Notes: generated by a model from the sequence alone, not told the origin. A DNA stretch of 32,000 bases from Flavobacteriaceae bacterium (GCA_965224465.1 OZ245049.1:1560001-1592000), one strand, 5' to 3'. Positions 9,261-24,865 are shown, counted from the stretch's first letter. Made by a program: numbers and translations.

Positions 9261-10385
9261 CTGAATTCAAGTCACAAACGCAACTTTTAGTTAAATAATA
9301 ATTGTTCCATTACAAATATAGGGTTTTGATATGAAAACCTTTTCCTAGGCCTTCTATTTAATTTTCCTTCCACCTGTTTTATCATCTGCTTAGTTAATAT
9401 CGAAAAGTCACTTCCTTTAGGGAAATATTGCCGAATAAGCCCATTTAAATTTTCATTAGATCCTCTTTCCCATGAATGGTAAGGATGTGCAAAATAATAA
9501 TCGATTCCTAAAAATTCAGCTACTTTTTTATGTCCTGCAAACTCTTTTCCGTTATCAGCTGTTATAGTGTTTATATACGGTATCCAATCTTCTAAAAGCT
9601 CATTAATAGCAGCTGTTACAACAGAAGATTCTTTAGATGCTATTTTTTTCATCTTTAGCATCCCAGAAGCCCTGTCATTGATTGTAAGAATGGCTTGATG
9701 ATGATTTTTTCCAATTATTAAATCCACTTCTAAATCTCCAAAACGTTCTCTTTTCTCCACTATATCTGGTCGTTTTTCAATACTAATTCGATCTTTAATA
9801 ATACCACGTGAGTCCTTGAATGCCCCTCGTTTCCTGTACTTCCTTCCTTGTCTTCTTAAATGAGTATAGAGTGTGCCTTTATGCTTCTTATCTTGCCAGA
9901 TATGCTGATAAATACGTTCTACTGAAACAACTTCTTTTCCTTGCTTAGTAAGTATTCCAACCACTTGTTCTGGACTATAATCATCACGTAACAGCTTTTC
10001 AACCTCGCTTCTTATCTTCTCAGTAAACCTAATGTGCTTTCGCTTTTTCTTATGTCTATCCTTCCACTTTCTATGTGCTAATTCGTATTCATAGGAGCCG
10101 CTACGAGCATCGCAATTACGTTTGCATTCTCTACTTATAGTGCTTTTATGTTTCCCTATAGCCAAGGCTATTTTGGACTTAGAATACCCCTGTGATAACA
10201 TACAGGTAATTGTGTATCTTTGTTCTTTGGTTAAATGTGCCATACTACTTCTTTTTCAGAGACTTGAGGGCGTAAGGTAACTATTCCATCAAAACATGAA
10301 GGAGAGGTGACTCTCTTTCTGTTTTGAAAAATAAACCTTAGAGACTCTCAAATCTAAGAAGTTGCATTTACTACTTGAATTTAAG
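9261..10385 (-). mobile_element. IS30-family insertion sequence, apparently intact (~1.13 kb)
   Basis: Imperfect ~26-27-bp terminal inverted repeats: CTGAATTCAAGTCACAAACGCAACTT at 9261-9286, versus the reverse complement of 10359-10385, CTTAAATTCAAGTAGTAAATGCAACTT. They bracket one transposase ORF. Direct repeat TATG (or GTATG) lies at 9257-9260 and 10386-10389. Confidence 0.8.
9287..10243 (-). CDS. IS30 family transposase
   Basis: 318 aa. N-terminal HTH MAHLTKEQRYTI..MLSQGYSKSKIA.AIGKHKSTISRE.KRN is characteristic of IS30 transposases. The C-terminal DDE integrase core includes ADNGKEF and ERGSNENLNGLIRQYFPKG. Confidence 0.9.
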   Translation of the reverse strand: MAHLTKEQRYTITCMLSQGYSKSKIALAIGKHKSTISRECKRNCDARSGSYEYELAHRKWKDRHKKKRKHIRFTEKIRSEVEKLLRDDYSPEQVVGILTKQGKEVVSVERIYQHIWQDKKHKGTLYTHLRRQGRKYRKRGAFKDSRGIIKDRISIEKRPDIVEKRERFGDLEVDLIIGKNHHQAILTINDRASGMLKMKKIASKESSVVTAAINELLEDWIPYINTITADNGKEFAGHKKVAEFLGIDYYFAHPYHSWERGSNENLNGLIRQYFPKGSDFSILTKQMIKQVEGKLNRRPRKRFSYQNPIFVMEQLLFN

Positions 10386-10466
10386 TATGTTTAGTTTATG
10401 ACTTCATAAAAGTCTTGTTTTTACGCGTAATAATGTGGAGTTCCTAATAAATATGTGACTATTTTA

Positions 10467-11300
10467 CTAAGCCACTTTCTTAATTTCCTTTTTTAGTTTT
10501 ATTTCCATTTCAAGCGGTGATAAATACCCTAAACTTGAATGTAATCTTTTGATATTGTACCAAGAGATATATTCATTTATCGACTCGTGTAATTGCAGAT
10601 ATGACATGTACTTGAAACGATAGAGCCACTCATACTTTATGGATTTAAAAAAGCTCTCAGCAACAGCATTATCCCAACAATTACCTTTTCTACTCATGCT
10701 CTGTGTTATTTTCTGATTAAAATATAAAATAGCAGTCATTTTATTAGATGCGTATTGCACTCCTCTGTCTGAATGAAAGATAAACCCTGGATTAATAGCT
10801 CTTGTTCTTCTAGCCGCAATCCACGCTTTTACAATAGTGTTTTGGGTGGTCATGTCCTCACTTAAAGACCATCCTACCACTTTTCTGTCAGCTAAATCAA
10901 TTATCGTGGTTAAGTAATTCCAATCATCATTTACGCGTATATAGGTGATGTCTGACACCCATTTATCTCCTATTTTCAAACTGGTAAACTCTCTGTTTAA
11001 TATATTTTTAGCAATAGGATAATCGTGTTTAGAGTCTGTAGTTACCACAAAAGCCTTCTTCAGAACACTTCGCAGACCCATCTCTTTCATCAACAGCGCC
11101 ACGTAAGAACGGCAATAATACACTCCTTCTCGCTCCAATGCTTTTTGAATTCTATGACTCCCATAGATCTCTTTACTTTCGATAAAATGATAGGTAATCC
11201 TATCCATCAAGTCTACTTTAGCAGTATTCTGTACGCTGGAACCGTTATTGTTTACCCAGTGATAATATGCGTTTTTACTAACGCGCATGGATTTACACAT
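10467..11300 (-). CDS. IS3 family transposase OrfB (DDE integrase core), probably made as an OrfAB fusion by -1 frameshift
   Basis: The 277-aa ORF as tracked has the rve-type core (WVSDITYI ... HSDRGVQYAS ... NCWDNAVAESFF). Its frame is -1 relative to OrfA and stays open upstream of the first Met. The true N-terminus is likely supplied by frameshifting at 11381-11387. Confidence 0.85.
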   Translation of the reverse strand: MCKSMRVSKNAYYHWVNNNGSSVQNTAKVDLMDRITYHFIESKEIYGSHRIQKALEREGVYYCRSYVALLMKEMGLRSVLKKAFVVTTDSKHDYPIAKNILNREFTSLKIGDKWVSDITYIRVNDDWNYLTTIIDLADRKVVGWSLSEDMTTQNTIVKAWIAARRTRAINPGFIFHSDRGVQYASNKMTAILYFNQKITQSMSRKGNCWDNAVAESFFKSIKYEWLYRFKYMSYLQLHESINEYISWYNIKRLHSSLGYLSPLEMEIKLKKEIKKVA

Positions 11301-12148: not shown

Positions 12149-13159
12149 ATGATAATGGGTGAATTAAAAAAGAATAAAAAAAATACAAATTCAAATCGGA
12201 CTATCGGTCTTATAGGATGTGGCATGGTAGGAATGAGTTTTATTTATTCTTCCATAAATGCTGGTGTCGCAGAAGAATTTATTCTTATCGATAAATTCAG
12301 CGACCTTTCTCAAGGAAATAGTCTTGATATAGAAGATGCTATTGCAGCTTCTACTAATTCGGGAGTTATAGTAAGAGAGGGATCATATGAGGATTTAGAG
12401 CATGTAGATTTTCTTGTAATCGCAGCAGGAAGACCACAAAAAGATGGAGAAACACGTCTAGATCTAGTAATGGGAAACAGCCTTATAATAAAAGATATTG
12501 CACAAGGAGTTAAAGACAGTGGCTTTGCTGGCATCAGTTTAATCGTATCTAATCCCGTTGATGTATTAAGTCTTGTCTATTTAAAAGTAACAGGTTTCGA
12601 CTCAAAAAAAGTCATCTCTTCAGGAACTGTATTGGATACAGCACGTTTAAGAATAAAACTAGGAGAACTTCTAAATGTTAACTCTGCTTCGGTACAAGCG
12701 TATGTAATAGGAGAACATGGAGATTCTTCTGTAGCAGCCTATCGTTCGGCTAGCATAGGAGGCTTACATTTATTTGAATTCATGAAAATGAAAGGTGTTG
12801 GGGCAGAAAACCTAGCTCTTATCCATAAACAAATAGTTGGAAAAGCTTATGAAATAATAAAACGGAAGAAAGCTTCTTATTATGGGATAGGCAATGTTAT
12901 TGCCGACATCGCAAAATGTATTCTGAAAGATGAAAAAAGAGTGATGAGTGTTTCTATTCTTCTTGATGAAAGTTTTAGCAAACAAGAAGTTTTTGCAGGA
13001 ATGCCTTGCGTTTTAGGAAGAGAAGGGGTTTTGCAAATAATAAAACCAAAACTTTCTATTGAAGAAAGTTTGGCTTTTCAAAAATCATTAGATACCCTTA
13101 TATATTATAATTCGTATGTAAAAAAAGAATTTAATACTGAGATTTTAGAAAGCACATAG
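12149..13159 (+). CDS. ldh: L-lactate dehydrogenase
   Basis: 336 aa. Rossmann motif IGLIGCGMVGMS. LDH/MDH blocks: AGRPQKDGETRLDL (substrate Arg loop), VSNPVDV, DTARLR and the catalytic His in IGEHGDS. Confidence 0.8.
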   Translation: MIMGELKKNKKNTNSNRTIGLIGCGMVGMSFIYSSINAGVAEEFILIDKFSDLSQGNSLDIEDAIAASTNSGVIVREGSYEDLEHVDFLVIAAGRPQKDGETRLDLVMGNSLIIKDIAQGVKDSGFAGISLIVSNPVDVLSLVYLKVTGFDSKKVISSGTVLDTARLRIKLGELLNVNSASVQAYVIGEHGDSSVAAYRSASIGGLHLFEFMKMKGVGAENLALIHKQIVGKAYEIIKRKKASYYGIGNVIADIAKCILKDEKRVMSVSILLDESFSKQEVFAGMPCVLGREGVLQIIKPKLSIEESLAFQKSLDTLIYYNSYVKKEFNTEILEST

Positions 13160-13456
13160 TTATACCAATTACACTCCTCGTATGCTTCTTAAGGTTTCTA
13201 AGAAAACATCCGAGGAGCCCCCACATAAAAAATCTTCTTCAACTATTTTATAAATGGATTTTATGTGATTCTCTTAAAGGCAAAATATTCTTCAAAAAAA
13301 CCTTAAAACTGTAATCGCAAACTGTGTGAAAACCTTTTTTATTGAGAAACAATCGCTAAACAAAAACATAAAACACATATTTTTTAAAATTAAATACTAC
13401 TGTATACATCTTTATTTTTCAAAAAACTCATTATAAATCATTTCTGCTATTTTCAA

Positions 13457-14092
13457 TTAAAATTTATTATCTATATCAACATTCTTGAAAAAATCTGCGA
13501 TTACAAAAGGAATGTTATTTTTTCCAAAAAAAGAATTATACTTGACAAATGCTTTTACTCGTATTAAATAAAACATTCCATTCTCTTCGTAATAAGAGTC
13601 CATATCTTGAGATCGTTGCTCAAATTTATAATTAAAAGGAATAAAGGTTTTATTTATAATTGAACCTATTTTGGCTTCTGATTTAACAACCGTAAAAACA
13701 CAATCTCCTTTTTCTCGTTTGAACAAATCTATAATCTGTTCTAAAATATAATTATTCCTTATAGGGTTCGTAGGTTGTAATACGAGTAAAGCATCTGGAA
13801 ATGTAAAATGATTATTACTTAAATACATAAGAAAATGTTTAATAAATAAGGAACTTGAAGCTTTAGAAGAACAGTATTCCTCTGGTCTTATAATATATGG
13901 AACATCATTTTTCTTGCAAAATTCAACAATCACATTATCGTTAGTAGTGACAAAATATTCAGAAATATATTTAGATTTTTTAGCAAAATTAACAGAATGC
14001 ATAAATAAAGGTTTTCCTAAAAATAAAGCAAAATTTTTCCCAGGAAACCTGATAGAATTTTTACGCGCTGGAATGAGTGCTATTATTTTCAT
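13457..14092 (-). CDS. Acylneuraminate/CMP-sugar cytidylyltransferase family protein (NeuA/KdsB-like)
   Basis: 211 aa. The N-terminal IALIPARKNSIRFPGKN is the signature nucleotide-binding loop of the CTP_transf_3 family. Its start codon overlaps the upstream gene stop (ATGA, 14089-14092). Confidence 0.7.
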   Translation of the reverse strand: MKIIALIPARKNSIRFPGKNFALFLGKPLFMHSVNFAKKSKYISEYFVTTNDNVIVEFCKKNDVPYIIRPEEYCSSKASSSLFIKHFLMYLSNNHFTFPDALLVLQPTNPIRNNYILEQIIDLFKREKGDCVFTVVKSEAKIGSIINKTFIPFNYKFEQRSQDMDSYYEENGMFYLIRVKAFVKYNSFFGKNNIPFVIADFFKNVDIDNKF

Positions 14093-15516
14093 TGAACATT
14101 CGCTATTTTTAAGATTTCTGACACTGCATTATTGATAGCAAATTCAGCTGTAGTCATAAAATAATTAGACTTTTCAACGATTATATTCCCCTGTATTCTA
14201 GCCACTAAACTATTAGAATTTAGTAATTCTTTAATTTTACTCTTTGCTTCGTTTAAAGACCTAACCTCAAATCCTAATTCTAATTCCTGTAGATTAGGGT
14301 GATAATTAGACATGGATGTAGGGTTAAAAACAAATGGAATGGCATCATACACAATACTTTCCATTAAAGTGGATGAAAAAACAGCTACACTAACAATACT
14401 TCTAGACAAAACATTATCTAATGACACCGATTTTGATGGTACAAAAAACACATTTTTATACTTGTTTAATGTTTGTATTTTATCTGAAAAAAATTGATTT
14501 GCAGGATGCTCTCTAATTAATATTTCTAAATTCGGAAATGTAATAGCGCAGTAAGCTGCAAATGCAATCATTTGGTTTATTACAGGAATGGATAAAATGA
14601 AATAAGGCGCTTGAAAAAAGAAAGAAATGGCATTTTTATCTTGAATATTGTAATCGCTAATTTTAAATGGGTAGCCAGTACTTATGAATTTTGGTTTGTT
14701 ATTCACTTTTTTGAAAAGACAGGAAAATTCATTTCCCCATGTTAAAAAATAATCAAAAGGCATGTTCCTAAATCCTGTATGTAATATGCAAGGCCATCCA
14801 TGTTGCAAGCAAATTGTTTTTATTTTTAATTTAGTTGCTATAGATGCTAAGATGTCATAATCTACAATATTGCCGCCTTCTATGACAAGTATGCATGCTG
14901 GATTTAAAACCTTAATAATTAATTCAAAAGTGTTGTATAAATAGTAAAGGTTAGGGAATTTACTTTTTAAAAATTCGTTTGGATATAGTTCTATCTCTAG
15001 CGCAGCAAATTCTATAATTTCTATATTTTTAGGATATGCTGTTGTGTTGTTAATACTTGCACTAGTTAGTACTACTATTTCTTGGTTTATAGCGGATAGT
15101 ATTCCTAAAACTTGTTTTAAAAAACGCTCGTTATAGGCGTAAAAGAGGATTTTATTTTTATAGGGATGTAATACTTTTTCTAAAGATGCTATTATATTTG
15201 AGTTATCGTTTTTTGTATCACTTGAAACAAAATATTCCTTGTTTTCTAACTGTAAATTTTTAAAAGTCTCTCGGTAAAACTCTTCTTTAAAGAATGGATT
15301 TAAACGACCGTTTAAATAATTAGCATTAAACGAAGCTCTTAGTGCATCGTTGTGTAAAGGGATGTTAAAAATTCGTTTCCCTAGTAAAGACCTTATATTT
15401 TCATTGTTTAACATTAAGTAATTGTGGTCTTTATCCTCAATTACATTCAAGTATTCTTCAATTATTTGTTCTATATATTTTAAATATTGAACTCCGTAAT
15501 CTTTTTGGTCCATCAT
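14089..15516 (-). CDS. Hypothetical protein, possible GT-B-type CMP-sugar-dependent transferase (weak assignment)
   Basis: 475 aa. Only weak motif-level hints: a LQHGW block, an EHP (HP) motif followed by VFSST. These are reminiscent of bacterial sialyl-/Kdo-transferase and capsule-synthesis families. Context with the overlapping cytidylyltransferase gene supports this. No confident family recognition by eye. Confidence 0.3.
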   Translation of the reverse strand: MMDQKDYGVQYLKYIEQIIEEYLNVIEDKDHNYLMLNNENIRSLLGKRIFNIPLHNDALRASFNANYLNGRLNPFFKEEFYRETFKNLQLENKEYFVSSDTKNDNSNIIASLEKVLHPYKNKILFYAYNERFLKQVLGILSAINQEIVVLTSASINNTTAYPKNIEIIEFAALEIELYPNEFLKSKFPNLYYLYNTFELIIKVLNPACILVIEGGNIVDYDILASIATKLKIKTICLQHGWPCILHTGFRNMPFDYFLTWGNEFSCLFKKVNNKPKFISTGYPFKISDYNIQDKNAISFFFQAPYFILSIPVINQMIAFAAYCAITFPNLEILIREHPANQFFSDKIQTLNKYKNVFFVPSKSVSLDNVLSRSIVSVAVFSSTLMESIVYDAIPFVFNPTSMSNYHPNLQELELGFEVRSLNEAKSKIKELLNSNSLVARIQGNIIVEKSNYFMTTAEFAINNAVSEILKIANVQ

Positions 15517-15530
15517 GATTATAGTTTGAA

Positions 15531-16832
15531 TTAAGATCTATTAATTACATTTTTTAATTGGTAAAAAAAACGTTCCATCAATCGTAAATCTTCTGTAATA
15601 ATTTCTGCCATGCCTCTCATTTCTTGATTAAAAGAAATTTTTTTATTGTACGTAGTTATTAACGTAGTATCTAGATTAACATCTATATTGTAAAAGCCTT
15701 CCGCATCTGGAATAATTGAAATTCGATTGATAATACCAATGAGCATTCCGTACTCATTTGAGGGGTAGTTTTGTAATTTAATATGTACTTTTTGTCCAAT
15801 TTTAATTTTTCCAAAATTATACGATGCTGCTTTTATTTTCCCTATATAAGATCCAAATTCATTTGGTACAATGGAAAAAACAATGTCGCCAGATTTAATG
15901 GTTTGGGTTTTATTCCAAATATCCACAAATGCAACTTGACCAGAAATTGAAGATATTAAAGCATAGTTATATTCCCAGTCTTTAATCGCTTTTTTTAATT
16001 GGTAAAAGGATTGGATTACATTGTTAAACTGGGTTGTTTCTTCAAATCTTTTATTAATCCAAGTCCCATTTAAGCTTTTGTATAAATTACCCAAGCTTTC
16101 TTTTAATTGAGAAATCTGTGAATTCATACCTTGAGCATTTTTTTTTGCTTGCAGAAATCCTAACTGCTTTAGTTCATAGTCTTGTGCGGATATAATTCCT
16201 TTATCAAATAATAATTGTTGTCTTGAGAGCCCTTTTTCTTTTAGGGCTAGTTCTCTTTTGTTAATGTCTTTTTGAACTATTAAAATTTCTAGGCGTTGTT
16301 TGGTTTGGGAAATGGAAAGCCTGTTTATAGCTGACTCGTTATTAAATGGTTTTAGTTTTTTATTGAGTACGTATTTAGAGTAATTGTTTTCAAAAACCGC
16401 AAAACTTGTAGCAATATCTCCTAACATTAACACTGGTAATTCATGTAGTGGAAAATAAAAAGATGTAGCATTTAAAACAACTTTGTCTGTGAACTTTTTC
16501 AGTAGCAATACGTCTTTGTATTTTGCCGAGTTTTTTACAACTGCCAATAAAGTGTGTTCTTCTACAAATTCGGCATCTTTCACCAACAATGCATCCATTT
16601 GACCATTGGAACGTGAAATTACTTTTTCGGGTGGTAAAGTGGTGGTAACTATTACTTCGCTCGAAATAATATCAGGATATTTTACAAACCACGATATAAA
16701 TATCAATAGCAATACAATTATAAATACCAAGGTCATTCCCCATCTTATCATCCAATGTGGAATATAAGATAGTATTTCTTGTACTTCCTCGCTACGTACT
16801 GCAATATGTGTTGCTTTTTTATTTTTTTTCAT
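15531..16832 (-). CDS. HlyD-family membrane-fusion/adaptor protein for the peptide ABC exporter
   Basis: 433 aa. N-terminal cytoplasmic tail plus one TM (MTLVFIIVLLLIFISWFV). A long coiled-coil-like middle region (QTKQRLEILIVQKDINKRELALKEKGLSRQQ...) is followed by C-terminal beta-rich barrel-like sequence. It sits in the same operon as the C39-ABC gene. Confidence 0.8.
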   Translation of the reverse strand: MKKNKKATHIAVRSEEVQEILSYIPHWMIRWGMTLVFIIVLLLIFISWFVKYPDIISSEVIVTTTLPPEKVISRSNGQMDALLVKDAEFVEEHTLLAVVKNSAKYKDVLLLKKFTDKVVLNATSFYFPLHELPVLMLGDIATSFAVFENNYSKYVLNKKLKPFNNESAINRLSISQTKQRLEILIVQKDINKRELALKEKGLSRQQLLFDKGIISAQDYELKQLGFLQAKKNAQGMNSQISQLKESLGNLYKSLNGTWINKRFEETTQFNNVIQSFYQLKKAIKDWEYNYALISSISGQVAFVDIWNKTQTIKSGDIVFSIVPNEFGSYIGKIKAASYNFGKIKIGQKVHIKLQNYPSNEYGMLIGIINRISIIPDAEGFYNIDVNLDTTLITTYNKKISFNQEMRGMAEIITEDLRLMERFFYQLKNVINRS

Positions 16833-18405
16833 TATTTTTTGTATTTAAAATATCTTTAAAAGCAATACTATCCATAGGGTTTGGAGCGTTTAAAAGATAC
16901 ACGGCATTGTTAGCATCCAAAAGTGTCCATCTAGGTAATTGCACCCAGTTTTTCTTAAAATCTATGAACTTAAAATAATAATTAATTACATCTGACTTCT
17001 TACGATTACGAATACGGTAATGTTGAGTTTTATTTGTGTCCCCTTCTAATTCATGAATAAATTTCGACCATTTATTTTGTTCATCATCAAGCGAAATATA
17101 GATATATGAAGCTTTGTAATCATTTTCTAATGTCTTTCGGAATTGATGTAAATTAACAATATTGGAAGGTGTAATCTTATCATTATATGACCAAAAATGT
17201 ATTATTTTGTTATTGTTTTGATACGACATTAATAGCTCCTCAAATGTGATCTCCCTCCCTGTAATAGTAATTAATTTCTCTTGTAAAACGCTTTCTGGAA
17301 TCATATGCTCATTTATATTGATGTCTGAGGCTATATCTTCAATTTCATCTATATAAGATAGTGGAAGTTTTTTTGTTTTTAAATTCTTTATTTGAGTTAA
17401 AAAAACCTCTTTGTTATGTGCGTTATTCACAAAACCAATCGCATTAAATTCTTTTAGCAAATAAATTATGGCAAGATCTTGAACTATTCCTTTCAATTGA
17501 CTATTTATCATTTTCTTCTTTAGTAAAAACGAATCGTTATCATTCAAACTAGAGTCTAAACGACTAGAAACGTTTATGATATATGCTTTTAAACTACGCT
17601 TAAAATAATCATTATTAATAAGTTCTGGTCGATTAAAATGGTGTAAAGGAATGCTATTAATAAAACCCAATGTGTATCGTTTTTCTTCTCCTGAATTGGC
17701 ATTTATTAATTGGTTTTTCTTGAATGCTTTATTTATATATATGTTGTTTACCTGTTTACTGGAAGTGTTTACTTTGATTTCTCCTTTTCTTGGAACCATC
17801 ATATTAAACAAATATTCAAATTCAATTTCAGATTTCACTAGAATTACAAATTTTTCAGACACCTCAGAATGAATTTTTATATATTGTTTTAGAAATAGTA
17901 GTTGATCATCTTTAATTTTTTTGCATTCTTTTTCGTATCTTTTAAAGTCATTCCAAAAAGCATTATTTTTATACTTTAAAGATATTGAAGTATTCATTTT
18001 ATTGTAAAAATTATAATGAGCTTCGTTTTTCCCTGAAAATGTAACTTTACCTTGGTTAAATGCAATAGAAACGGTGTCACCAGGGCTAAGCATAATTCTT
18101 GTGTTGTGAAAATATTTTCCAAAAAAAACAATTTCCATTAGTTGTGGAGTCTTTACTGCCTTTAATCGTATAAAAAGCGTGTCTTTCTCAATATATTTTT
18201 CTTCTGCTGCATGCTTTTTCCCTTCAAAGTTTGCATAATCGGTAAGGTTAAAATAAGTAAGGTTACTCTTATCTTTTGAGCTTACTTTTAATAAGATGTT
18301 TTTTATTTTTGACTCTAGAACTATCACATCATTTTCTTTTTTTGAATTTTGTTTCTGTGCACAGGATATACATATAAAAACAAACAAACAAATAATTTTA
18401 TTCAT
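16819..18405 (-). CDS. Lipoprotein with a C-terminal thioredoxin-like fold lacking the CXXC motif (module 1 partner)
   Basis: 528 aa. Lipobox FICISC. The C-terminal ~110 aa align by eye to the TlpA domains of the two paralogous neighbours. FWSYNDKIT replaces FWASWCAPC, while the YIYISLD and cis-Pro LPRWTLLD blocks are retained. It overlaps the HlyD start by 14 nt. Confidence 0.6.
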   Translation of the reverse strand: MNKIICLFVFICISCAQKQNSKKENDVIVLESKIKNILLKVSSKDKSNLTYFNLTDYANFEGKKHAAEEKYIEKDTLFIRLKAVKTPQLMEIVFFGKYFHNTRIMLSPGDTVSIAFNQGKVTFSGKNEAHYNFYNKMNTSISLKYKNNAFWNDFKRYEKECKKIKDDQLLFLKQYIKIHSEVSEKFVILVKSEIEFEYLFNMMVPRKGEIKVNTSSKQVNNIYINKAFKKNQLINANSGEEKRYTLGFINSIPLHHFNRPELINNDYFKRSLKAYIINVSSRLDSSLNDNDSFLLKKKMINSQLKGIVQDLAIIYLLKEFNAIGFVNNAHNKEVFLTQIKNLKTKKLPLSYIDEIEDIASDININEHMIPESVLQEKLITITGREITFEELLMSYQNNNKIIHFWSYNDKITPSNIVNLHQFRKTLENDYKASYIYISLDDEQNKWSKFIHELEGDTNKTQHYRIRNRKKSDVINYYFKFIDFKKNWVQLPRWTLLDANNAVYLLNAPNPMDSIAFKDILNTKNNEKK

Positions 18406-18420
18406 AATAATATATTATTA

Positions 18421-18442
18421 AAGGGGACGTTAACGTCCCCTT
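18421..18442 (-). terminator. Strong hairpin immediately downstream of precursor 1 (attenuator/terminator candidate)
   Basis: Perfect 22-nt palindrome AAGGGGACGTTAACGTCCCCTT, 14 nt after the precursor stop codon and 15 nt before the next start codon. Confidence 0.6.
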
Positions 18443-18455
18443 AATTAATTAATTT

Positions 18456-18683
18456 TTAACAATCCTTTCCTGTACAAATAGCCCATCCACTATAGCCTCC
18501 TTGATTATAACATGCATGCTCTACAGTGGCATCATCTGCATTAGGGGCATTATCTATCCATACACCCGAATTACACTTAATACTCCATTTGTTCACATCG
18601 TCTCCACTACCTCCATTAATACTTCGTTGTTGTTCCTTACTTAATACTTTGGCACCTTCTAAATTTAATTTTAATTTTTTCAT
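18456..18683 (-). CDS. Double-glycine-leader peptide precursor 1 (bacteriocin-like, 4-Cys core)
   Basis: 75 aa. Leader MKKLKLNLEGAKVLSKEQQRSINGG ends in the GG cleavage motif. The 50-aa core is SGDDVNKWSIKCNSGVWIDNAPNADDATVEHACYNQGGYSGWAICTGKDC. The leader is shared with two other loci in the cluster. Confidence 0.8.
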   Translation of the reverse strand: MKKLKLNLEGAKVLSKEQQRSINGGSGDDVNKWSIKCNSGVWIDNAPNADDATVEHACYNQGGYSGWAICTGKDC

Positions 18684-18765
18684 TATAAAAATATTTTAAT
18701 TATTATGTTGCCTTGAACATTTAAAGACACTCAAGGTGTGTGTCTATTCCTCGCGAGAGAATATT
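18684..18765 (-). promoter_or_regulatory. Conserved 82-nt element upstream of a precursor gene (copy A)
   Basis: Identical to 20950-21031 and ~85 percent identical to 24761-24842, with the same length. It contains the palindrome TATTC-CTCGCGAG-A-GAATA (18745-18763). It also has the hairpin AGACAC(18725-30)/GTGTCT(18740-45) and a competing CCTTGA(18711-16)/TCAAGG(18731-36) pairing. Confidence 0.5.
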
Positions 18766-19078
18766 TTAATTTCCGAGCTCTAATTGATTTTCAACCAACT
18801 TAAAGTAGGATCCTTTTAAGGATATCAGTTCCTTGTGTGTTCCTTTTTCTACAATTCTCCCCTTATCAAGTACTACTATTTGGTCTGCATTTTTAACAGT
18901 ACTCAGCCTATGTGCGATAATAATAGCTGTACGGTTTTTAAAAAAAGTGTTTAGTTTTTCCATTATTACTTTTTCGTTATTTGCATCAAGAGCAGAGGTA
19001 GCCTCGTCAAAAAACAATATTTGGGATTTTTATACACCGCTCTTGCAATGAGTAATCGCTGTTTTTGTCCAGTGCTTA
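18766..19078 (-). pseudogene. Truncated, frameshifted duplicate of the 3' end of the C39-ABC exporter gene
   Basis: Nucleotide-identical to 21032-21345 except for one missing A in the run at ~19016-19017, which shifts the frame. It begins inside the LSTGQ signature codons and lacks everything upstream. The tracked 83-aa ORF ([10 protein letters not shown]...ELGN) is its distal part. Confidence 0.85.
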
Positions 19079-20634
19079 TCCAATAAGGCTCTTATCTCTT
19101 TTCCCTCTGGGCCAGGTGCATTTTTATGGATCAAATTACCTTGTTGGTCGTACAATAAATACCTTGGAATTGATTTCAGGTTTAATTGCTTATAAAAAAG
19201 TGCATTGGGATAATTTACAGCAAATAAATTGTTGCGGCTTCTAAGAAAGCCCTCCTCTTTGGAGGCTGTTTTCCATTTTTTAAAATCGCGGTCTATAGAT
19301 ATATAAACAAACGCAACCTCTTTATTGCTATAATCCTTATGTAGTTTTTTTGCTTCGGGAAATGCCGCTCTACAAGGTGCACACCAACTTGCCCAAAAAT
19401 CTACATATACCAGCTTACCTTTGTGTTTGTTTAACACATCTTTAAGTTGTGTTTTTTGTTTAAATGTGTCTATTAGATAAACTTTTTTGGTATCAGTAGT
19501 GTCTAAATAGTACGTAGTATTGATCAAATTAATATAAGTGCTATCGTTAATTGTTTTTTTGAATTTCAGAAAATATTTACTTGCATCTTGAACAGGAAAA
19601 TCTTTGATTATTTTTAGTAAATAGGTATACATTAAGTATTCTTTTACTTTTTTAGAAAAAAGGTTACTTGATTGAATTGAATCAAAAACGGCTTTCCAAT
19701 CATAATAATAACCACCACTTTTATTTAGATGAAATTCGTACTTAGTTGTCTTGTTTTCAAAATAATTAGGGAGGAATTGATAAGAAATAAAATCATGATA
19801 AAATTTATTTTCTAGTAAACTATCTCCTAGTTGTATGATACTTTTAATTGATGTTCTTTTGGGACGATGAGTTCTTTGTGAAATAGTAAATACATCTAGG
19901 TTAGACTTGAAAAACGTATCAAGTGGTAGTTCCGTCTGTTTTGCTAATCTGCTCCAGTTTATGAATGTTAATTTTTGTTTGTAGTAAGTATAGATGTCTT
20001 TAGATAATAAATCAGTAGCATATAATGAATCTAAGAAATGTTGCTGTGTCTTTAACTCCTCGAGTAATCTATTGGAGTATTCTACATTCAATTTTTTAAA
20101 GTAATTTTCCCACTTTGTTTTTGGTAGATCAAACGGTGGAAAGGGAACCCTTTTAAAACACCTCTCAAAACTAGTTAAATCATGCTTGTTATTGCCTTTT
20201 AAGGTTAATGATTCAAAGGAGTAATCATATTTTTTATGTGCTCTGTTTAAAATTGATATTATAGGTATACCCCTTATATATTTAACATAAACCGAATCTC
20301 CTGGTTTAAAAATGTAGGAAAGACCTTCTAATCCTATTTTTTCAAAATAAATTTCTTTTTTTTTGCCATTAAATGATATGTTAACAGTATCATTTAATGG
20401 TGCTCTTTGTGGATTAATATACTTACAAATCCCAGAGGAATCATAATATGACGCTATATAATTCAAATATTTTACCCCTCCAATATTTTGGCTATTCACC
20501 AATGATATATGTATTGGTTTTGGAATACAGTCAAATATTAAAGTTAGTTTTTTAGTTTTTAATTGTTCAATATTTACTTGCTTCTCTTTGTTGCAGCTAA
20601 TTATTAGAATAACAATTACTAGAAAATATCTCAT
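19030..20634 (-). CDS. TlpA-family thiol-disulfide oxidoreductase lipoprotein (module 2 partner), with a chimeric C-terminal tail
   Basis: 534 aa. Lipobox ILIISC. The C-terminal thioredoxin domain has VDFWASWCAPCRAAFP and the cis-Pro block SIPRYLLYD. The last 15 residues (HWTKTAITHCKSGV region) are translated from the duplicated ABC fragment in another frame (junction at 19078/19079). Confidence 0.75.
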   Translation of the reverse strand: MRYFLVIVILIISCNKEKQVNIEQLKTKKLTLIFDCIPKPIHISLVNSQNIGGVKYLNYIASYYDSSGICKYINPQRAPLNDTVNISFNGKKKEIYFEKIGLEGLSYIFKPGDSVYVKYIRGIPIISILNRAHKKYDYSFESLTLKGNNKHDLTSFERCFKRVPFPPFDLPKTKWENYFKKLNVEYSNRLLEELKTQQHFLDSLYATDLLSKDIYTYYKQKLTFINWSRLAKQTELPLDTFFKSNLDVFTISQRTHRPKRTSIKSIIQLGDSLLENKFYHDFISYQFLPNYFENKTTKYEFHLNKSGGYYYDWKAVFDSIQSSNLFSKKVKEYLMYTYLLKIIKDFPVQDASKYFLKFKKTINDSTYINLINTTYYLDTTDTKKVYLIDTFKQKTQLKDVLNKHKGKLVYVDFWASWCAPCRAAFPEAKKLHKDYSNKEVAFVYISIDRDFKKWKTASKEEGFLRSRNNLFAVNYPNALFYKQLNLKSIPRYLLYDQQGNLIHKNAPGPEGKEIRALLDKHWTKTAITHCKSGV

Positions 20635-20655
20635 AATGGTTTTTTGTTAGGTTAT

Positions 20656-20680
20656 AGGAAAGGAGTTTTCCTCCTTTCCT
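20656..20680 (-). terminator. Hairpin downstream of precursor 2
   Basis: 10-bp stem AGGAAAGGAG (20656-65) / CTCCTTTCCT (20671-80) with a 5-nt loop, 20 nt after the stop codon of the precursor-2 reading frame. Confidence 0.5.
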
Positions 20681-20700
20681 AAGTTTTGAATAATTGACTT

Positions 20701-20949
20701 TTAACAACCAAGATATTTTTTATGATCAGTATTTAGCCAGCTTACCTCACAGCAAGAATCGCAACAATAATTACCTCCTGTAACCGATGCTCCGTGAATT
20801 GCAGCATCACTACTAACACCAGACATACCACTAAATCCATTTCCACTGTCAAATGCACATGATCCAGCCGGCCAGCCACTACCTCCATTAATACTTCGTT
20901 GTTGTTCCTTACTTAATACTTTGGCACCTTCTAATTTTAATTTTTTTAT
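20701..20949 (-). CDS. Double-glycine-leader peptide precursor 2 (6-Cys core). ATA occupies the start position, so it is possibly a pseudogene or non-canonically initiated. Absent from the ORF track.
   Basis: My own translation of the minus strand is (ATA)KKLKLEGAKVLSKEQQRSINGG-SGWPAGSCAFDSGNGFSGMSGVSSDAAIHGASVTGGNYCCDSCCEVSWLNTDHKKYLGC, with stop TAA at 20701-20703. The leader DNA is identical to precursor 1 except for a 6-nt deletion (Asn-Leu) and ATG to ATA. An in-frame TAA lies at 20962-20964, with no ATG/GTG/TTG in between. Confidence 0.55.
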   Translation of the reverse strand: MKKLKLEGAKVLSKEQQRSINGGSGWPAGSCAFDSGNGFSGMSGVSSDAAIHGASVTGGNYCCDSCCEVSWLNTDHKKYLGC

Positions 20950-21345
20950 TATAAAAATATTTTAATTATTATGTTGCCTTGAACATTTAAAGACACTCAA
21001 GGTGTGTGTCTATTCCTCGCGAGAGAATATTTTAATTTCCGAGCTCTAATTGATTTTCAACCAACTTAAAGTAGGATCCTTTTAAGGATATCAGTTCCTT
21101 GTGTGTTCCTTTTTCTACAATTCTCCCCTTATCAAGTACTACTATTTGGTCTGCATTTTTAACAGTACTCAGCCTATGTGCGATAATAATAGCTGTACGG
21201 TTTTTAAAAAAAGTGTTTAGTTTTTCCATTATTACTTTTTCGTTATTTGCATCAAGAGCAGAGGTAGCCTCGTCAAAAAACAAATATTTGGGATTTTTAT
21301 ACACCGCTCTTGCAATGAGTAATCGCTGTTTTTGTCCAGTGCTTA
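20876..21345. repeat. Segmental duplication, copy B (within the intact ABC gene, intergenic element and precursor-2 leader)
   Basis: See copy A. Identity ends at 21345 (inside the LSTGQ codons) and at 20876 (just after the GG-SG codons). Confidence 0.9.
20950..21031 (-). promoter_or_regulatory. Conserved 82-nt element upstream of a precursor gene (copy B)
   Basis: Identical to 18684-18765. It lies between the ABC stop (21032) and the precursor-2 start position (20949). Confidence 0.5.
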
Positions 21346-23218
21346 GCCCAGCTCCTTCCATGCCTATTTTAGTGTTATAGCCTAGTGGTAGGTCATCAAT
21401 ATAATCAGAAATATTAGCAATGTCTATTGCATGATTTAATCGTTTCTGATCAATTATTTCTTCTCCAATGGCAATGTTGTTTGCAATGGTATTGTTAAAA
21501 ATATAGCCCTCTTGCATTACAACACCACAGTGTTGTCTCCATGTTTTAACGGCAATGTTTTTTAAATCGTGCTTTGCAACAAAAATGGTACCTTTATCCA
21601 ATTCATAAAAACGCATTAATAGTTTCATTAAGGTAGTTTTACCACTTCCACTTACTCCTACAATGGCGGTTATTTTATTGCTTGGTATATATAAATCCAA
21701 TTCTTTAATTACGGGTTGTAAACCTCCAATATATCGAAACGAAACTTTTTTTAATTCGATAGACGCATTAGCAGGGATCTCATTTATTTTTTGATCGCTT
21801 GTTTTCTCTTCATCATCCCTGTTGTGTATCTCTCCAAGTCTATCTAAGGATATTTTTGCATCTTGTAGTTCTCTCATAAATCCAATAAACTGAGTTACAG
21901 GTGCATTTAATTGTCCTACAATATAGCTTATAGCCATCATCATTCCTAAGGTAATATCACCATCAATTACTAATTTGGCAGACAATACGGTAATAAACAT
22001 GTTTTTTAGTTCGTTAATAAATGAAGACCCTACACTTTGGGTCTGTTCTAAAACAAGACTTTTAATTGATATTTTAAACAAACCAGCTTGTATATATTCC
22101 CAACCCCAACGCATTTGCCTTTCGGCATTGTGTAATTTAATTTCCTGCATACCTCCAATCAATTCAATTATTTTACTTTGATTGGCACTTGAGTATGAAA
22201 ACCGCTTATAATCCAATATTTTCCTGCGCTTAAAAAAGAAGAGTACCCAAGTAAAATACAAAACACTCCCCACTAAAAATACCGTGAAAATTTGCATGCT
22301 ATAATAGCTCAATACAAAACTAAACACAAAAAAATTAAACAGGGAAAAGACAACGTTTAAGGACGATGTGGTTAATATATTCTGTATCCTACGATGATCC
22401 TGTATACGTTGCATAAGATCACCTGTTAAGCGCACATCAAAAAAGGATATGGGTAAGCTCATTAATTTGATAAAAAAATCAGATATTAATGCAATACTTA
22501 TTCTAGTGCTCATATGGAGCATAATCCAACTTCTTATAATCTCAATAGATGCTTTTCCTAGGAATAGCAATAGCTGAGCTGCTAAAATTAGATAAATAAA
22601 ATGGATGTCTTGGTTTTGAATCCCTACGTCTACAATACTTTGTGTTAAAAAAGGCACCATAAGTTGTAATACACTGCCAGCCATTAAACCGATGGCTATT
22701 TGAACCAAAAACCGCTTGTATTTTAATACGTATTTAAACAAAAAGGAAAAACCAAAAGGAATCTCTTCTTCAAAGGTTTCCTGATAAAACTTAGGGGTAG
22801 GATCTACTATTAAAACGATGCCTTCCTGAGTATTTTCTGTTGCGTTATTTCCAATCCATTGACGTATAAAGTCTTGTTTATTGTATTCTAAAAGACCATT
22901 GGCAGGATCAGAAATGTACAGAACCTCTTTTTTTATTTTATAAAGGACTACATAATGATTTTTATTCCAATGCAAAATACAGGGTAAGGGGGCTTCCTGT
23001 AATTTAATAAACGATAATTGCGCTCCTAAACTTCTAAAACCAATAGATTCTACAGCTTCCCCCAAGCCCAATAAACTACTGCCTTTTCGGGTGGTTTCGC
23101 TTAGGGTCCGTAATTGTTGGGTGTTGATTGTTTTACCATAAAACTTGGTAATAATTTTGATGCAAGTAGGGCCGCAATCTTTAGACTCTGTTTGTTTATA
23201 ATTTGGGAATTTTTTCAA
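21032..23218 (-). CDS. Peptide-cleaving/export ABC transporter with an N-terminal C39 peptidase domain
   Basis: 728 aa. C39 domain with catalytic Cys in KDCGPTC and His in HWNKNHYVV. A six-helix ABC exporter membrane domain follows. The NBD has Walker A GVSGSGKTT, signature LSTGQKQR, Walker [12 protein letters not shown] and H-loop IIAHRLS. The start codon is TTG (23216-23218), directly preceded by an in-frame TAA. Confidence 0.9.
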   Translation of the reverse strand: MKKFPNYKQTESKDCGPTCIKIITKFYGKTINTQQLRTLSETTRKGSSLLGLGEAVESIGFRSLGAQLSFIKLQEAPLPCILHWNKNHYVVLYKIKKEVLYISDPANGLLEYNKQDFIRQWIGNNATENTQEGIVLIVDPTPKFYQETFEEEIPFGFSFLFKYVLKYKRFLVQIAIGLMAGSVLQLMVPFLTQSIVDVGIQNQDIHFIYLILAAQLLLFLGKASIEIIRSWIMLHMSTRISIALISDFFIKLMSLPISFFDVRLTGDLMQRIQDHRRIQNILTTSSLNVVFSLFNFFVFSFVLSYYSMQIFTVFLVGSVLYFTWVLFFFKRRKILDYKRFSYSSANQSKIIELIGGMQEIKLHNAERQMRWGWEYIQAGLFKISIKSLVLEQTQSVGSSFINELKNMFITVLSAKLVIDGDITLGMMMAISYIVGQLNAPVTQFIGFMRELQDAKISLDRLGEIHNRDDEEKTSDQKINEIPANASIELKKVSFRYIGGLQPVIKELDLYIPSNKITAIVGVSGSGKTTLMKLLMRFYELDKGTIFVAKHDLKNIAVKTWRQHCGVVMQEGYIFNNTIANNIAIGEEIIDQKRLNHAIDIANISDYIDDLPLGYNTKIGMEGAGLSTGQKQRLLIARAVYKNPKYLFFDEATSALDANNEKVIMEKLNTFFKNRTAIIIAHRLSTVKNADQIVVLDKGRIVEKGTHKELISLKGSYFKLVENQLELGN

Positions 23219-23300
23219 TTAGTTGAGTTTTTTAAATAACATTTATAGCTCAGGTAAAGCATAACCTCCACAATCTCTGCACACAATTTATAAGTTGAAT

Positions 23301-24410
23301 TTAAGTCTTCAATAAAATTGCTATTTCTTTTGCTAGTGCATCAAAGGACTTATCCTGTGGCTTTTTTAATTTTCCTTGTTTATTTATTAAATAACAGTCT
23401 GGAATACCTTGGATATCGTATTTTAATGCTACATCGTCATTTACTCCTTTTACATTGCTCATATGAATTTTAGGAACAGTATCTGCCTCTACCATTCGCT
23501 TCCAGTCTTGTCGGTTTTTGTCCATGGAATAATAAACCACCTCAAACTCATCTTTAGGGAATTTATGAACAAGTTTACTCACTACTTCTTTATTAAATGT
23601 CTTACAAGGAGCACACCACGAGGCACCGAATTGCAACAATATTACCTTTCCTTTGGAATCGGATAATTTAAGGGGGGCGCCTTGAATATTTTTTGCTTCA
23701 ATTTCTATAAATGTATCATAGTCTTTAAGGATATGGTAGGTAGCATATTTTTTAATAGCTTGTCCGTTTACTGATTGTGAAAACCTGGTATTAAGAAGCT
23801 TGTAAAAAGATTGAATGCTGTCTCTTGAGAGTTTTTTTTTATTGGATAATATAAAATCCAAAGCTAGCTTAGAATTGGCATTTTTATGTATGAAGTCGTC
23901 TAAAAATTGTCTTGATTTAGTCTTGTAAGCTTTTTTTACAATATTATGTTGCTTAGTATTGGCTATATTTTGGATTACTTCATTTTTATAGAAGGACGTA
24001 AGGTTATATATTAAATCGACCTTGGCTCCAATCACCTGTTCTGTTATAATATCATTGAGTATTGCTCCAAATAATTCTGCTTTTTTAAAGTTTTTGAAGT
24101 CTCCTTTTATTTTTATCTTTGAGTTATCAAGCCAGAATGAGATATAGGATTTTGAGTAAGTTTTCTGGAGGGTGTCATAAAAACCAAGAGTTACTTTTTT
24201 TGGTTCATTTAGGCTTCCTTTTAGTTTAAAATTAGTTTCTTTTGAATACGTTGAGTCAAGTGTTTTACCTTTATACATCAGTAAAACATTTAAATTTTCG
24301 GGCAAATTCATTATTGAGGCATCTATTACGTAGTTGTCTTTGTGTTCGTTTTTTGTACAGCTTATTAATTGAATTAATGCCATAAGTGCGAATGCTATTT
24401 TTTTTATCAT
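23301..24410 (-). CDS. TlpA-family thiol-disulfide oxidoreductase lipoprotein with a DUF4369-like N-domain (module 3 partner)
   Basis: 369 aa. Lipobox QLISC. The N-terminal beta-rich Y.IDA....P....V.L.Y.....DS pattern resembles DUF4369. The C-terminal thioredoxin domain has LLQFGASWCAPCKTF and the cis-Pro block GIPDCYLIN. Confidence 0.8.
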   Translation of the reverse strand: MIKKIAFALMALIQLISCTKNEHKDNYVIDASIMNLPENLNVLLMYKGKTLDSTYSKETNFKLKGSLNEPKKVTLGFYDTLQKTYSKSYISFWLDNSKIKIKGDFKNFKKAELFGAILNDIITEQVIGAKVDLIYNLTSFYKNEVIQNIANTKQHNIVKKAYKTKSRQFLDDFIHKNANSKLALDFILSNKKKLSRDSIQSFYKLLNTRFSQSVNGQAIKKYATYHILKDYDTFIEIEAKNIQGAPLKLSDSKGKVILLQFGASWCAPCKTFNKEVVSKLVHKFPKDEFEVVYYSMDKNRQDWKRMVEADTVPKIHMSNVKGVNDDVALKYDIQGIPDCYLINKQGKLKKPQDKSFDALAKEIAILLKT

Positions 24411-24532
24411 TTTTTTTTAATATCTTATGTTTTCCTAGTAATTATATTGGGAATTAACTAAAGGCTCCCCTCGAAATAGCCTATTTAAAAATCATAGAAT
24501 GAGGTTATCCCCCTTCTATAATTAAGTTACGG

Positions 24533-24760
24533 TTAGGAACAATTTCCAAAGCCTCCTCCATACCAAGGGAAATCGCAACCACCAGAGGCACAATCGTTGT
24601 CCCGAGAACAGGCACAGTCTTTACTTTCTTGACCATGTCCTTCGTCGTCTCGACCTTGATTGCAACCGGTGTTTGAGTCTCCACTACCTCCATTAATACT
24701 CCGTTGCTGCACCTTACTTAATACTTTAGCACCTTCTAAATTTAATTTTAATTTTTTCAT
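24533..24760 (-). CDS. Double-glycine-leader peptide precursor 3 (bacteriocin-like, 6-Cys core)
   Basis: 75 aa. Leader MKKLKLNLEGAKVLSKVQQRSINGG. The 50-aa core is SGDSNTGCNQGRDDEGHGQESKDCACSRDNDCASGGCDFPWYGGGFGNCS. Confidence 0.8.
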   Translation of the reverse strand: MKKLKLNLEGAKVLSKVQQRSINGGSGDSNTGCNQGRDDEGHGQESKDCACSRDNDCASGGCDFPWYGGGFGNCS

Positions 24761-24842
24761 TGTTAAAAATTTTATTAATTATATTTGCCTCGAACATTTA
24801 AAGACACTCAAGGTGTGTGTCTATTCTTCGCGAGAGAATATT
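24761..24842 (-). promoter_or_regulatory. Conserved 82-nt element upstream of a precursor gene (copy C, diverged)
   Basis: Same length and register as copies A and B. The distal 55 nt are nearly identical (two substitutions). The palindrome is retained as TATTCT-TCGCGA-G-AGAATA. This copy is not attached to any ABC fragment. Confidence 0.5.
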
Positions 24843-24865
24843 GTTCTACAATCCCTTTGCTTTAA

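Follow-up and report, generated by a model that had tools for sequence, protein, structure and literature searches.

Organization of the locus and its repeated segment

The window analysed here, a stretch of 32,000 nucleotides (nt) from a Flavobacteriaceae bacterium (GCA_965224465.1 OZ245049.1:1560001-1592000), contains a locus for small secreted peptides, in which the peptide-lipoprotein cassette pep1-lipo1 lies next to a second cassette, pep2-lipo2, and is separated from it by a piece of the exporter gene. All genes of the locus are on the minus strand, as are the spacers, repeat copies and elements of the locus described below; positions are counted from the first letter of the window. In the direction of transcription, the order is a VKOR-like gene, pep3, lipo3, the C39-ABC exporter gene (ABC), pep2, lipo2, the ABC 3' fragment, pep1, lipo1 and the gene for a HlyD-type adaptor (HlyD).

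The 10 locus proteins were annotated with Pfam and NCBIfam. The exporter (728 amino acids (aa), 21032-23218) is intact; it carries Peptidase_C39, ABC_membrane and ABC_tran domains in Pfam and bacteriocin_ABC in NCBIfam. Peptidase_C39 was matched at 1.5e-32 and TIGR01193 (bacteriocin_ABC) at 2.7e-124, the latter under its curated cut-off. The adaptor (15531-16832) is of the NCBIfam type_I_hlyD type, and its conserved part runs from codon 13 (RSEEVQEIL…) onward (15531-16796). The VKOR-like protein (538 aa, 24866-26482) belongs to the VKOR family, with a C39-like N-terminus and a thioredoxin-like C-terminus. The peptide genes pep3 (24533-24760), pep2 (20701-20949) and pep1 (18456-18683) have one 25-residue double-glycine leader in common, MKKLKL(NL)EGAKVLSK.QQRSINGG, in which …INGG is directly followed by the core. 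The cores contain six (pep3 and pep2) or four (pep1) cysteines and are mutually unrelated. The leader of pep1 (18683-18604) matches that of pep2 (20949-20876), save for the lesions of pep2 described below.

One lipoprotein gene follows each peptide gene. The lipo3 product (23301-24410) contains DUF4369 and thioredoxin domains; lipo2 (534 aa, 19030-20634) is of thioredoxin fold with the motif WCAPC (Pfam Thioredoxin_8 and Redoxin), and both proteins match Thioredoxin_8, Redoxin and AhpC-TSA. The fold of lipo1 (528 aa, 16819-18405) is a degenerate thioredoxin fold without CxxC, and no Pfam match was found for it. At the position where homologues carry WCEPC or WCLPC, lipo1 has YNDKITPS; it may no longer be a redox enzyme. 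Taken together, the domain content shows a locus predicted to export small Cys-rich peptides with double-glycine leaders, which would be cut and pumped out by the C39-ABC exporter with the HlyD adaptor. Oxidation of the peptides is presumably carried out by the VKOR-like membrane protein together with the thioredoxin-fold lipoproteins, one of which is encoded behind each peptide gene.

Two segments of the locus are near-identical. Copy A (21345 to 20876, 470 nt) consists of the last 313 nt of the ABC gene (21345-21032), the ABC-pep2 spacer (20950-21031) with one conserved intergenic element, and the pep2 leader. Copy B (19078 to 18604, 475 nt) consists of the ABC 3' fragment (codons 625-728, 18766-19078), a spacer with the same element (18684-18765) and the pep1 leader. 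Repeat search and MAFFT alignment revealed only three differences between the two copies: a single nucleotide deleted from a T-run in copy B, near 19016; ATG at 18683-18681 in copy B versus ATA at 20949-20947 in copy A; and the deletion of 6 nt (Asn-Leu) from the leader of copy A. Self-blastn gave 98.1% identity over 479 columns, gaps counted, which is far above chance. Copy C (24677-24842), located ahead of pep3, comprises the element and leader only; it is 91.6% identical to copy B. Wherever copy C differs, the element and leader of copy B agree with copy A, except at the two lesions of copy A itself, and the three copies agree fully over the final ~20 nt of the leader.

The DNA on each side of copies A and B is unrelated. 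The lipo2 and lipo1 proteins share merely 29% identity over 90 aa, and the cores of pep1 and pep2 do not align. The repeat period is 2266-2267 nt; only ~470 nt of each 2.27-kb unit is common to both, and homology over the full length of the unit, as in a simple tandem duplication, is absent.

Copy B starts in the ABC codons CTA AGC ACT GGA CAA, which encode the signature LSTGQ. In tblastn, the fragment is 100% identical to the exporter over ABC codons 646-728; it is frameshifted and dead. The native sequence of lipo2 extends to 19079, and 19078-19030 is foreign to it: the gene ends with 14 codons (HWTKTAITHCKSGV) and one stop (19032-19030), read in another frame of the ABC fragment. Compared to its orthologue in the relative L089, described below, lipo2 has lost its last four natural codons, SLKK; homologues of lipo2 end 5-9 residues past the aligned DK. 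The near-identity of the copies with three differences, the divergence of the flanking genes, and a dead, frameshifted left copy beginning in the LSTGQ codons had all been noted in the first-pass annotation, and the alignments agree with it on each of these points. It had also placed the junction at the end of the lipoprotein gene, with 15 extra codons. The foreign tail is real, but it is 14 codons and a stop in length, and it comes at the cost of SLKK.

pep2 is damaged as well. Its start codon is ATA, two leader codons are gone, and there is no ATG, GTG or TTG ahead of the GG site; the single C/T change in the repeat is the loss of this start codon. With copy C and L089 as outgroups, copy A carries the derived state at both the ATA and the 6-nt deletion, as the dead ABC fragment does at the 1-nt deletion. 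Because the pep2 orthologue of L089 is intact, with both the ATG and the Asn-Leu codons present, while pep2 has no start, pep2 is probably a pseudogene. The profile alignment does not begin at the initial Met in 46 of 313 leader matches; nearly all of the 46 have an upstream ATG, the exceptions being pep2 and possibly one other. Two of the three differences between the copies fall within the first ~36 nt of the pep2 gene (P ~0.017 under uniform placement). This clustering hints that pep2 was silenced by selection, perhaps because lipo2 was damaged; chance or sequencing error could also account for it.

Strong GC-rich hairpins are located 3' of pep1 (GGGGACGTTAACGTCCCC, 18431-18463) and, with an 11-bp stem, 3' of pep2 (20655-20681). 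Either hairpin could serve as an attenuator or terminator that separates the peptide gene from the lipoprotein gene. No enrichment was seen in scans for sigma-70 promoters and for terminators. The GC content is flat along the whole locus (26-36%), without a sign of foreign composition. Transposase genes of the IS30 and IS3 families are located at 9287-11300, ~2 kb past the downstream end of the locus.

The empty site of a close relative and the two joints

One locus, L089, was found by a metagenome scan with the element pattern; its ABC protein is 96.3% identical to that of the window. In blastn, window 19075-23296 aligns with L089 1739-5965 at 90.6% identity and window 15501-16840 aligns with L089 392-1732 at 88%, and L089 has no counterpart of the window sequence between these two blocks. 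Gene by gene, the nucleotide identities are 91.7% for ABC, 90.2% for lipo2, 88.4% for HlyD, 84.2% for lipo3 and 76.8% for the VKOR-like gene, on which basis the five genes are orthologous. The lipo2 of L089 is 524 aa in length and ends with …EIRALLDKSLKK before the stop (…LLDKSLKK), and the stop is 2 nt ahead of the HlyD ATG. The same empty-site layout, followed as in the window by the genes for a 474-aa protein and CTP_transf_3, is present in four independent metagenome assemblies of the Joint Genome Institute (JGI; L114-L117).

The segment that L089 lacks is 2282 nt in length (16797-19078). It contains the ABC fragment, the element, pep1, lipo1 and the first 12 codons of HlyD, and it stands in place of 53 nt of L089. 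Both of its ends can be read. At the left joint (19078/19079), the window equals L089 up to …TTGGATAAG and then runs CACTGGACAAAAACAG…, while the ABC gene reads GGGCTAAG|CACTGG at the corresponding point, where the bar marks the joint. The two partners share a 4-nt microhomology, TAAG, which is located in GATAAG of lipo2 (codon 520) and in GCTAAG of the ABC LSTGQ codons. The right edge is of a different kind: the first 12 HlyD codons of the window and L089 are wholly different (MKKNKKATHIAV vs MQNNKEQEDFEI), and near-identity resumes at CGTAGCGAGG, HlyD codon 13. Sliding-identity analysis of ABC and HlyD for breakpoints gave ~75% identity to L001-L003, three related loci, and no clear patch against L089.

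Family-typical lipo2 proteins end with …LLKK or …FLKK. Since the end of L089 lipo2 fits this consensus, the window represents the derived state. The comparison shows ABC - element - pep2 - lipo2 - HlyD as the ancestral order, and the added segment looks as if it was cut from a locus ordered ABC - element - pep1 - lipo1 - HlyD. We consider it very probable that the window gained the pep1-lipo1 cassette, that the left joint is illegitimate, and that the ABC piece is the scar of this event. The recent acquisition of a whole core-plus-lipoprotein cassette, as had been proposed from the sequence of the window, is thus borne out by the empty site of a close relative. Because both joints are readable to the base owing to this site, the locus is a clean natural example of how an arsenal of secreted peptides grows.

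The other side of the ABC gene differs between the window and L089 as well. At L089 7783-7881, and also in L114-L117, there is an ABC 5' fragment (codons 1-33) that matches the intact gene of the same locus perfectly over ~98 nt; it sits between lipo3 and an extra module, pepX1-pepX2-lipoX, and is the mirror image of the scar in the window. lipoX, a 429-aa thioredoxin lipoprotein, is intact upstream of ABC in L089. The lipo3-ABC spacer of the window (23219-23300) is the decayed relic of a lipoprotein gene 3' end: it shares 70 of its 82 nt with the final 26 codons of lipoX (L089 5888-5969), and the relic frame reads …RDCGGYALPEL-stop-MLFKKLN-stop, with two stops. Judged by these alignments, the two congeners, ~90% identical, have come to differ on either side of ABC as modules were gained or lost, and each difference has left gene-fragment scars.

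Compared to ABC, lipo2 and HlyD (88-92% nucleotide identity), the VKOR-like gene is less conserved (24866-26482 vs L089 9589-11196; 76.8% nucleotide and 68% aa identity), and the genes past it are those for a sugar kinase and GAPDH in the window and for ATP synthase in L089. This pattern suggests mosaic ancestry or relocation of the VKOR end of the locus.

Routes to the two-cassette arrangement

The ABC protein has thousands of relatives in Flavobacteriaceae, e.g. in Lutibacter, Tenacibaculum and Polaribacter. The comparison set comprised 80 loci from species genomes and several contigs obtained by exact look-up. Our leader profile gave 340 matches in the window and 83 related loci (one of them a duplicate), and the cores of 313 family members have mostly 4 or 6 Cys. 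The first-pass annotation had suggested comparing cassette content among relatives, and this does vary: for 76 ABC genes with a downstream HlyD, the interval between the two contains 0 to 9 peptide genes, and the number of cassettes in it is zero in L001, one in L002 and two in L003. ABC 3' fragments were found in the window only among the genome-derived loci; two relatives, L089 and L080, have ABC 5' fragments instead.

When pairs of peptide genes were anchored on the GG site (1166 within-locus and 3000 between-genome pairs), nucleotide identity dropped right at the GG, from ~0.7 to the 0.3 of random sequence. The repeat's sharp downstream edge, which had been taken as specific evidence of recombination, is thus common to the whole family and does not point to this event in particular. 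Element-plus-leader repeats of 130-170 nt at 90-100% identity exist inside many loci, and element-plus-leader copies are 85-95% identical across paralogues and orthologues.

Two further loci of the set have unusual arrangements. L080 (Flavobacterium macrobrachii) contains another partial ABC duplication, a 558-nt repeat at 92% identity (1329-1886 and 6163-6720) that consists of the 3' end of a gene for a 363-aa protein and ABC codons 2-75. In L027 (2156-6378), lipo3-like, lipo2-like and lipo1-like genes are arranged in tandem without peptide genes between them, and a lone peptide gene with a different leader is located upstream of VKOR.

The order of the sequences at the joints is read directly, and from it we infer the following one-step route. 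A second version of the locus (ABC - element - pep1 - lipo1 - HlyD), coming from a very close relative, would have recombined with the resident locus. The exchange would have been homologous at its HlyD end, with conserved HlyD as the presumed anchor, and would have been resolved where the conserved sequence starts, at codon 13. The opposite incoming end would have been broken in the ABC signature codons and joined illegitimately to the last codons of lipo2 at TAAG. Both cassettes would thereby have been kept, together with the dead 313-nt ABC 3' fragment, the 14-residue tail of lipo2 and the two near-identical copies. Later, the start codon and two leader codons of pep2 were lost, as was one base of the ABC fragment. 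This is homology-facilitated illegitimate recombination, and its hallmarks are found here: empty sites in L089 and L114-L117, and a joint that combines TAAG microhomology with homology from HlyD codon 13. The copies differ by one substitution per ~470 nt, compared to a divergence of ~10% from L089; the gain, or the last homogenisation of the copies, would thus be recent. We lean towards this one-step route, with limited confidence.

Several points weigh against it. No donor was found: pep1 and lipo1 have no close relative among 5.8 billion proteins or in any collected locus, the nearest database relatives of lipo1 being 49% identical (partial) and the others at most 33%, and no source in another lineage was identified. 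No conspecific genome was found either; the best species genome reached 81%, and the exact 27-mer of the ABC 3' end is absent from the JGI metagenomes. As the ABC fragment differs from the intact gene by a 1-nt deletion only, the donor must have been near-identical in its ABC end, element and leader, unless later homogenisation made the copies alike. Such a donor would have to be at least 99.4% identical in this stretch, i.e. a conspecific with another cassette, which is unproven. The ABC 5' fragment of L089, identical to its own gene over ~98 nt, is no harder to explain by an intrachromosomal origin, or by later gene conversion, than by foreign DNA. In addition, we know of no documented natural transformation in this group.

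The main rival is a two-step route, in which the 2.27-kb unit (ABC 3' end, element, pep2 and lipo2) was first duplicated in tandem through microhomology, and a homologous swap to a foreign pep1-lipo1 came afterwards. The swap would have replaced the distal core, the lipoprotein and the HlyD N-terminus, with the element/leader and conserved HlyD as its arms. This route explains the near-identity of the copies without a donor having the same ABC sequence. The repeat period of 2266-2267 nt equals one unit, and the element and leader of copy B follow copy A where copy C differs, besides the copy A lesions. The last ~20 leader nt, identical in the three copies, offer a possible crossover block; element and leader copies in general are similar enough to recombine, and in L001 two cassettes with different cores share one 155-nt element/leader handle at 100% identity. 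However, two rare events are required, the second while the unstable duplication persists, the crossover must land in the final few bases of the leader, and no collected locus shows an intermediate with two identical cassettes. On balance we regard the two-step route as rather unlikely. In either case, the 470-nt stretch is not the crossover site that made the duplication, since a crossover within it would have swapped the cassettes without duplicating anything; its ABC part is a passenger scar. The idea that the ABC-end/intergenic/leader stretch served as the homology handle is thus not supported: the left joint is illegitimate, at TAAG, and the edge of homology is at HlyD codon 13.

An old duplication, or an old two-cassette arrangement whose 470 nt stayed alike through recurrent gene conversion by the intact ABC copy, would make the near-identity uninformative as to age. 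It would also produce sharp edges, because conversion tracts stop where homology ends, and the L089 ABC 5' fragment is identical to its intact gene in a similar manner. Against this, a relative at ~90% nucleotide identity has no fragment, pep1 or lipo1 and keeps the natural end of lipo2, so the structure is younger than the split of the two. Besides, three private differences between the copies were not erased, conversion cannot create an illegitimate joint, and no diverged relative with the same joint has been seen so far. We therefore regard this history as very unlikely, and the mosaic pattern agrees with the first-pass annotation that the repeat is not an old, uniformly diverged tandem duplication. 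Even less probable is that the relative deleted the segment and that the window is ancestral. Cassette loss does happen here, as the window itself retains the relic of a lipoprotein gene that is intact in L089. However, recombination between the repeats would remove core2-lipo2 and not pep1-lipo1, so L089 cannot be a deletion derivative of the window state; nor could a deletion restore the family-typical …SLKK end of lipo2, and the next relative, L002, is likewise single-cassette in the ABC-HlyD interval. A chimeric join or mis-expanded repeat in the assembly deserves equally little credence. Repeats of ~470 nt can mislead short-read assemblers, and this point was assessed from the assembled sequence; yet the copies have private differences and unique flanks, each inserted gene is intact and of an expected type, the HlyD N-terminus is complete, and the source record is one 5.24-Mb contig. 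Copying of the ABC fragment alone, by repair between two resident cassettes, was also considered; it was set aside, as the entire pep1-lipo1 segment is absent from L089.

The intergenic element and comparison with known systems

The element is ~60 nt in length (a 58-nt block), is located 20-30 nt upstream of each peptide gene and is conserved across genera. In the window, its copies are at 21028-20977 (ahead of pep2), 18762-18711 (pep1) and 24839-24788 (pep3). To assess base pairing, 102 distinct copies were aligned and the pairs counted. Helix S2 (CCTTGA…TCAAGG) is 96.7% paired, and four of its six pairs are changed on both sides; the counts at one example pair are UA 57, GC 26, CG 8, GU 4, UG 4 and AU 2. 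Helix S1 (AGACAC…GTGTCT) is 99% paired with one covarying pair, and the upstream hairpin P0 is 79% paired. In copy A, P0 spans 21028-21012, S1 pairs 21011-21006 with 20996-20991 and S2 pairs 21002-20997 with 20982-20977; in copy B, the corresponding positions are 18762-18746, 18745-18740 with 18730-18725, and 18736-18731 with 18716-18711. S1 and S2 cross each other, as in an H-type pseudoknot whose loops would have 3, 0 and 8 nt. None of 500 shuffles reached the observed covariation score, slid controls were far lower, and S2 was recovered independently by RNAalifold.

The frequent U-G pairs are compatible with the sense strand only. All 206 copies found by nhmmer are on the strand of the ABC gene of their locus, and for 181 of them a leader gene begins 10-50 nt downstream; a few lie ahead of ABC or HlyD. 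Thermodynamic folding of a single copy is unremarkable (z = -0.28); as a single copy is not unusually stable, the case for structure rests on the covariation. Rfam 15 gave no match at E<=1 across 13000-27500, and for the element alone the best hit had E=1.7 and 15 bits, compared to a gathering score of 47. No description of such an RNA motif was found in the literature. The element might act as a regulator in the leader RNA, in processing or stability, or as a component of an unusual promoter. Tentatively, it might represent an undescribed class of pseudoknotted cis-acting RNA at the 5' edge of nearly every double-glycine peptide gene of marine Flavobacteriaceae, and it is a concrete candidate for a new regulatory RNA. 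If so, the element could control the expression or processing of the transcript of each module, and element and leader together may supply portable homology for swapping or accreting peptide modules.

The locus belongs to a little-studied family, which is large, abundant in marine Flavobacteriaceae and resembles the bacteroidetocin systems of gut Bacteroidales. Like bacteroidetocin loci, it combines a membrane protein, a Cys-containing peptide with a GG leader, a thiol oxidoreductase and a C39-ABC exporter, here the VKOR-like protein, pep3, lipo3 and ABC; this likeness is drawn from gene content and Pfam/NCBIfam domains. Different from bacteroidetocins, whose leaders are 15-16 residues in length (PMC6671954), the leaders here have 25 residues, and the locus also contains a HlyD adaptor, several peptide-lipoprotein modules and an RNA-like element before each peptide gene. 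In bacteroidetocin loci, toxin activity depends on the oxidoreductase and on the membrane protein, neither of which gives immunity (Coyne et al. 2019, PMC6671954). The lipoproteins of the present locus are of thioredoxin fold and not obvious immunity proteins. A conserved leader ending with GG, C39 processing and dissimilar cores are also shared with class II bacteriocins, microcins and TIGR04149. That last family comprises the precursors of ribosomally synthesised and post-translationally modified peptides modified by radical SAM (rSAM) enzymes; pep1 scored 16.8 bits against its cut-off of 25, and no rSAM domain was found in the 10 locus proteins.

Illegitimate recombination of the homology-facilitated kind has been suggested for the toxin-module arrays of the V. 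cholerae type VI secretion system (T6SS) and for Rhs loci (PMC5361080), and the kind of event described here is already well known from other toxin loci; the covarying element is its most interesting by-product. In V. cholerae T6SS, Rhs and contact-dependent inhibition (CDI) systems, arrays of effector-immunity modules or orphan toxin tips have been ascribed to such recombination or to C-terminal displacement (PMC5361080 and references therein). Like these arrays, the present locus is anchored in conserved sequence at one edge and joined illegitimately at the other, it keeps the old module and carries a conserved-gene fragment as its scar, and close relatives have empty sites. Different from these arrays, the scar here comes from the exporter gene and not from a toxin gene, the retained module is a peptide with an oxidoreductase-like lipoprotein and not an immunity gene, and the older peptide gene was apparently inactivated afterwards.

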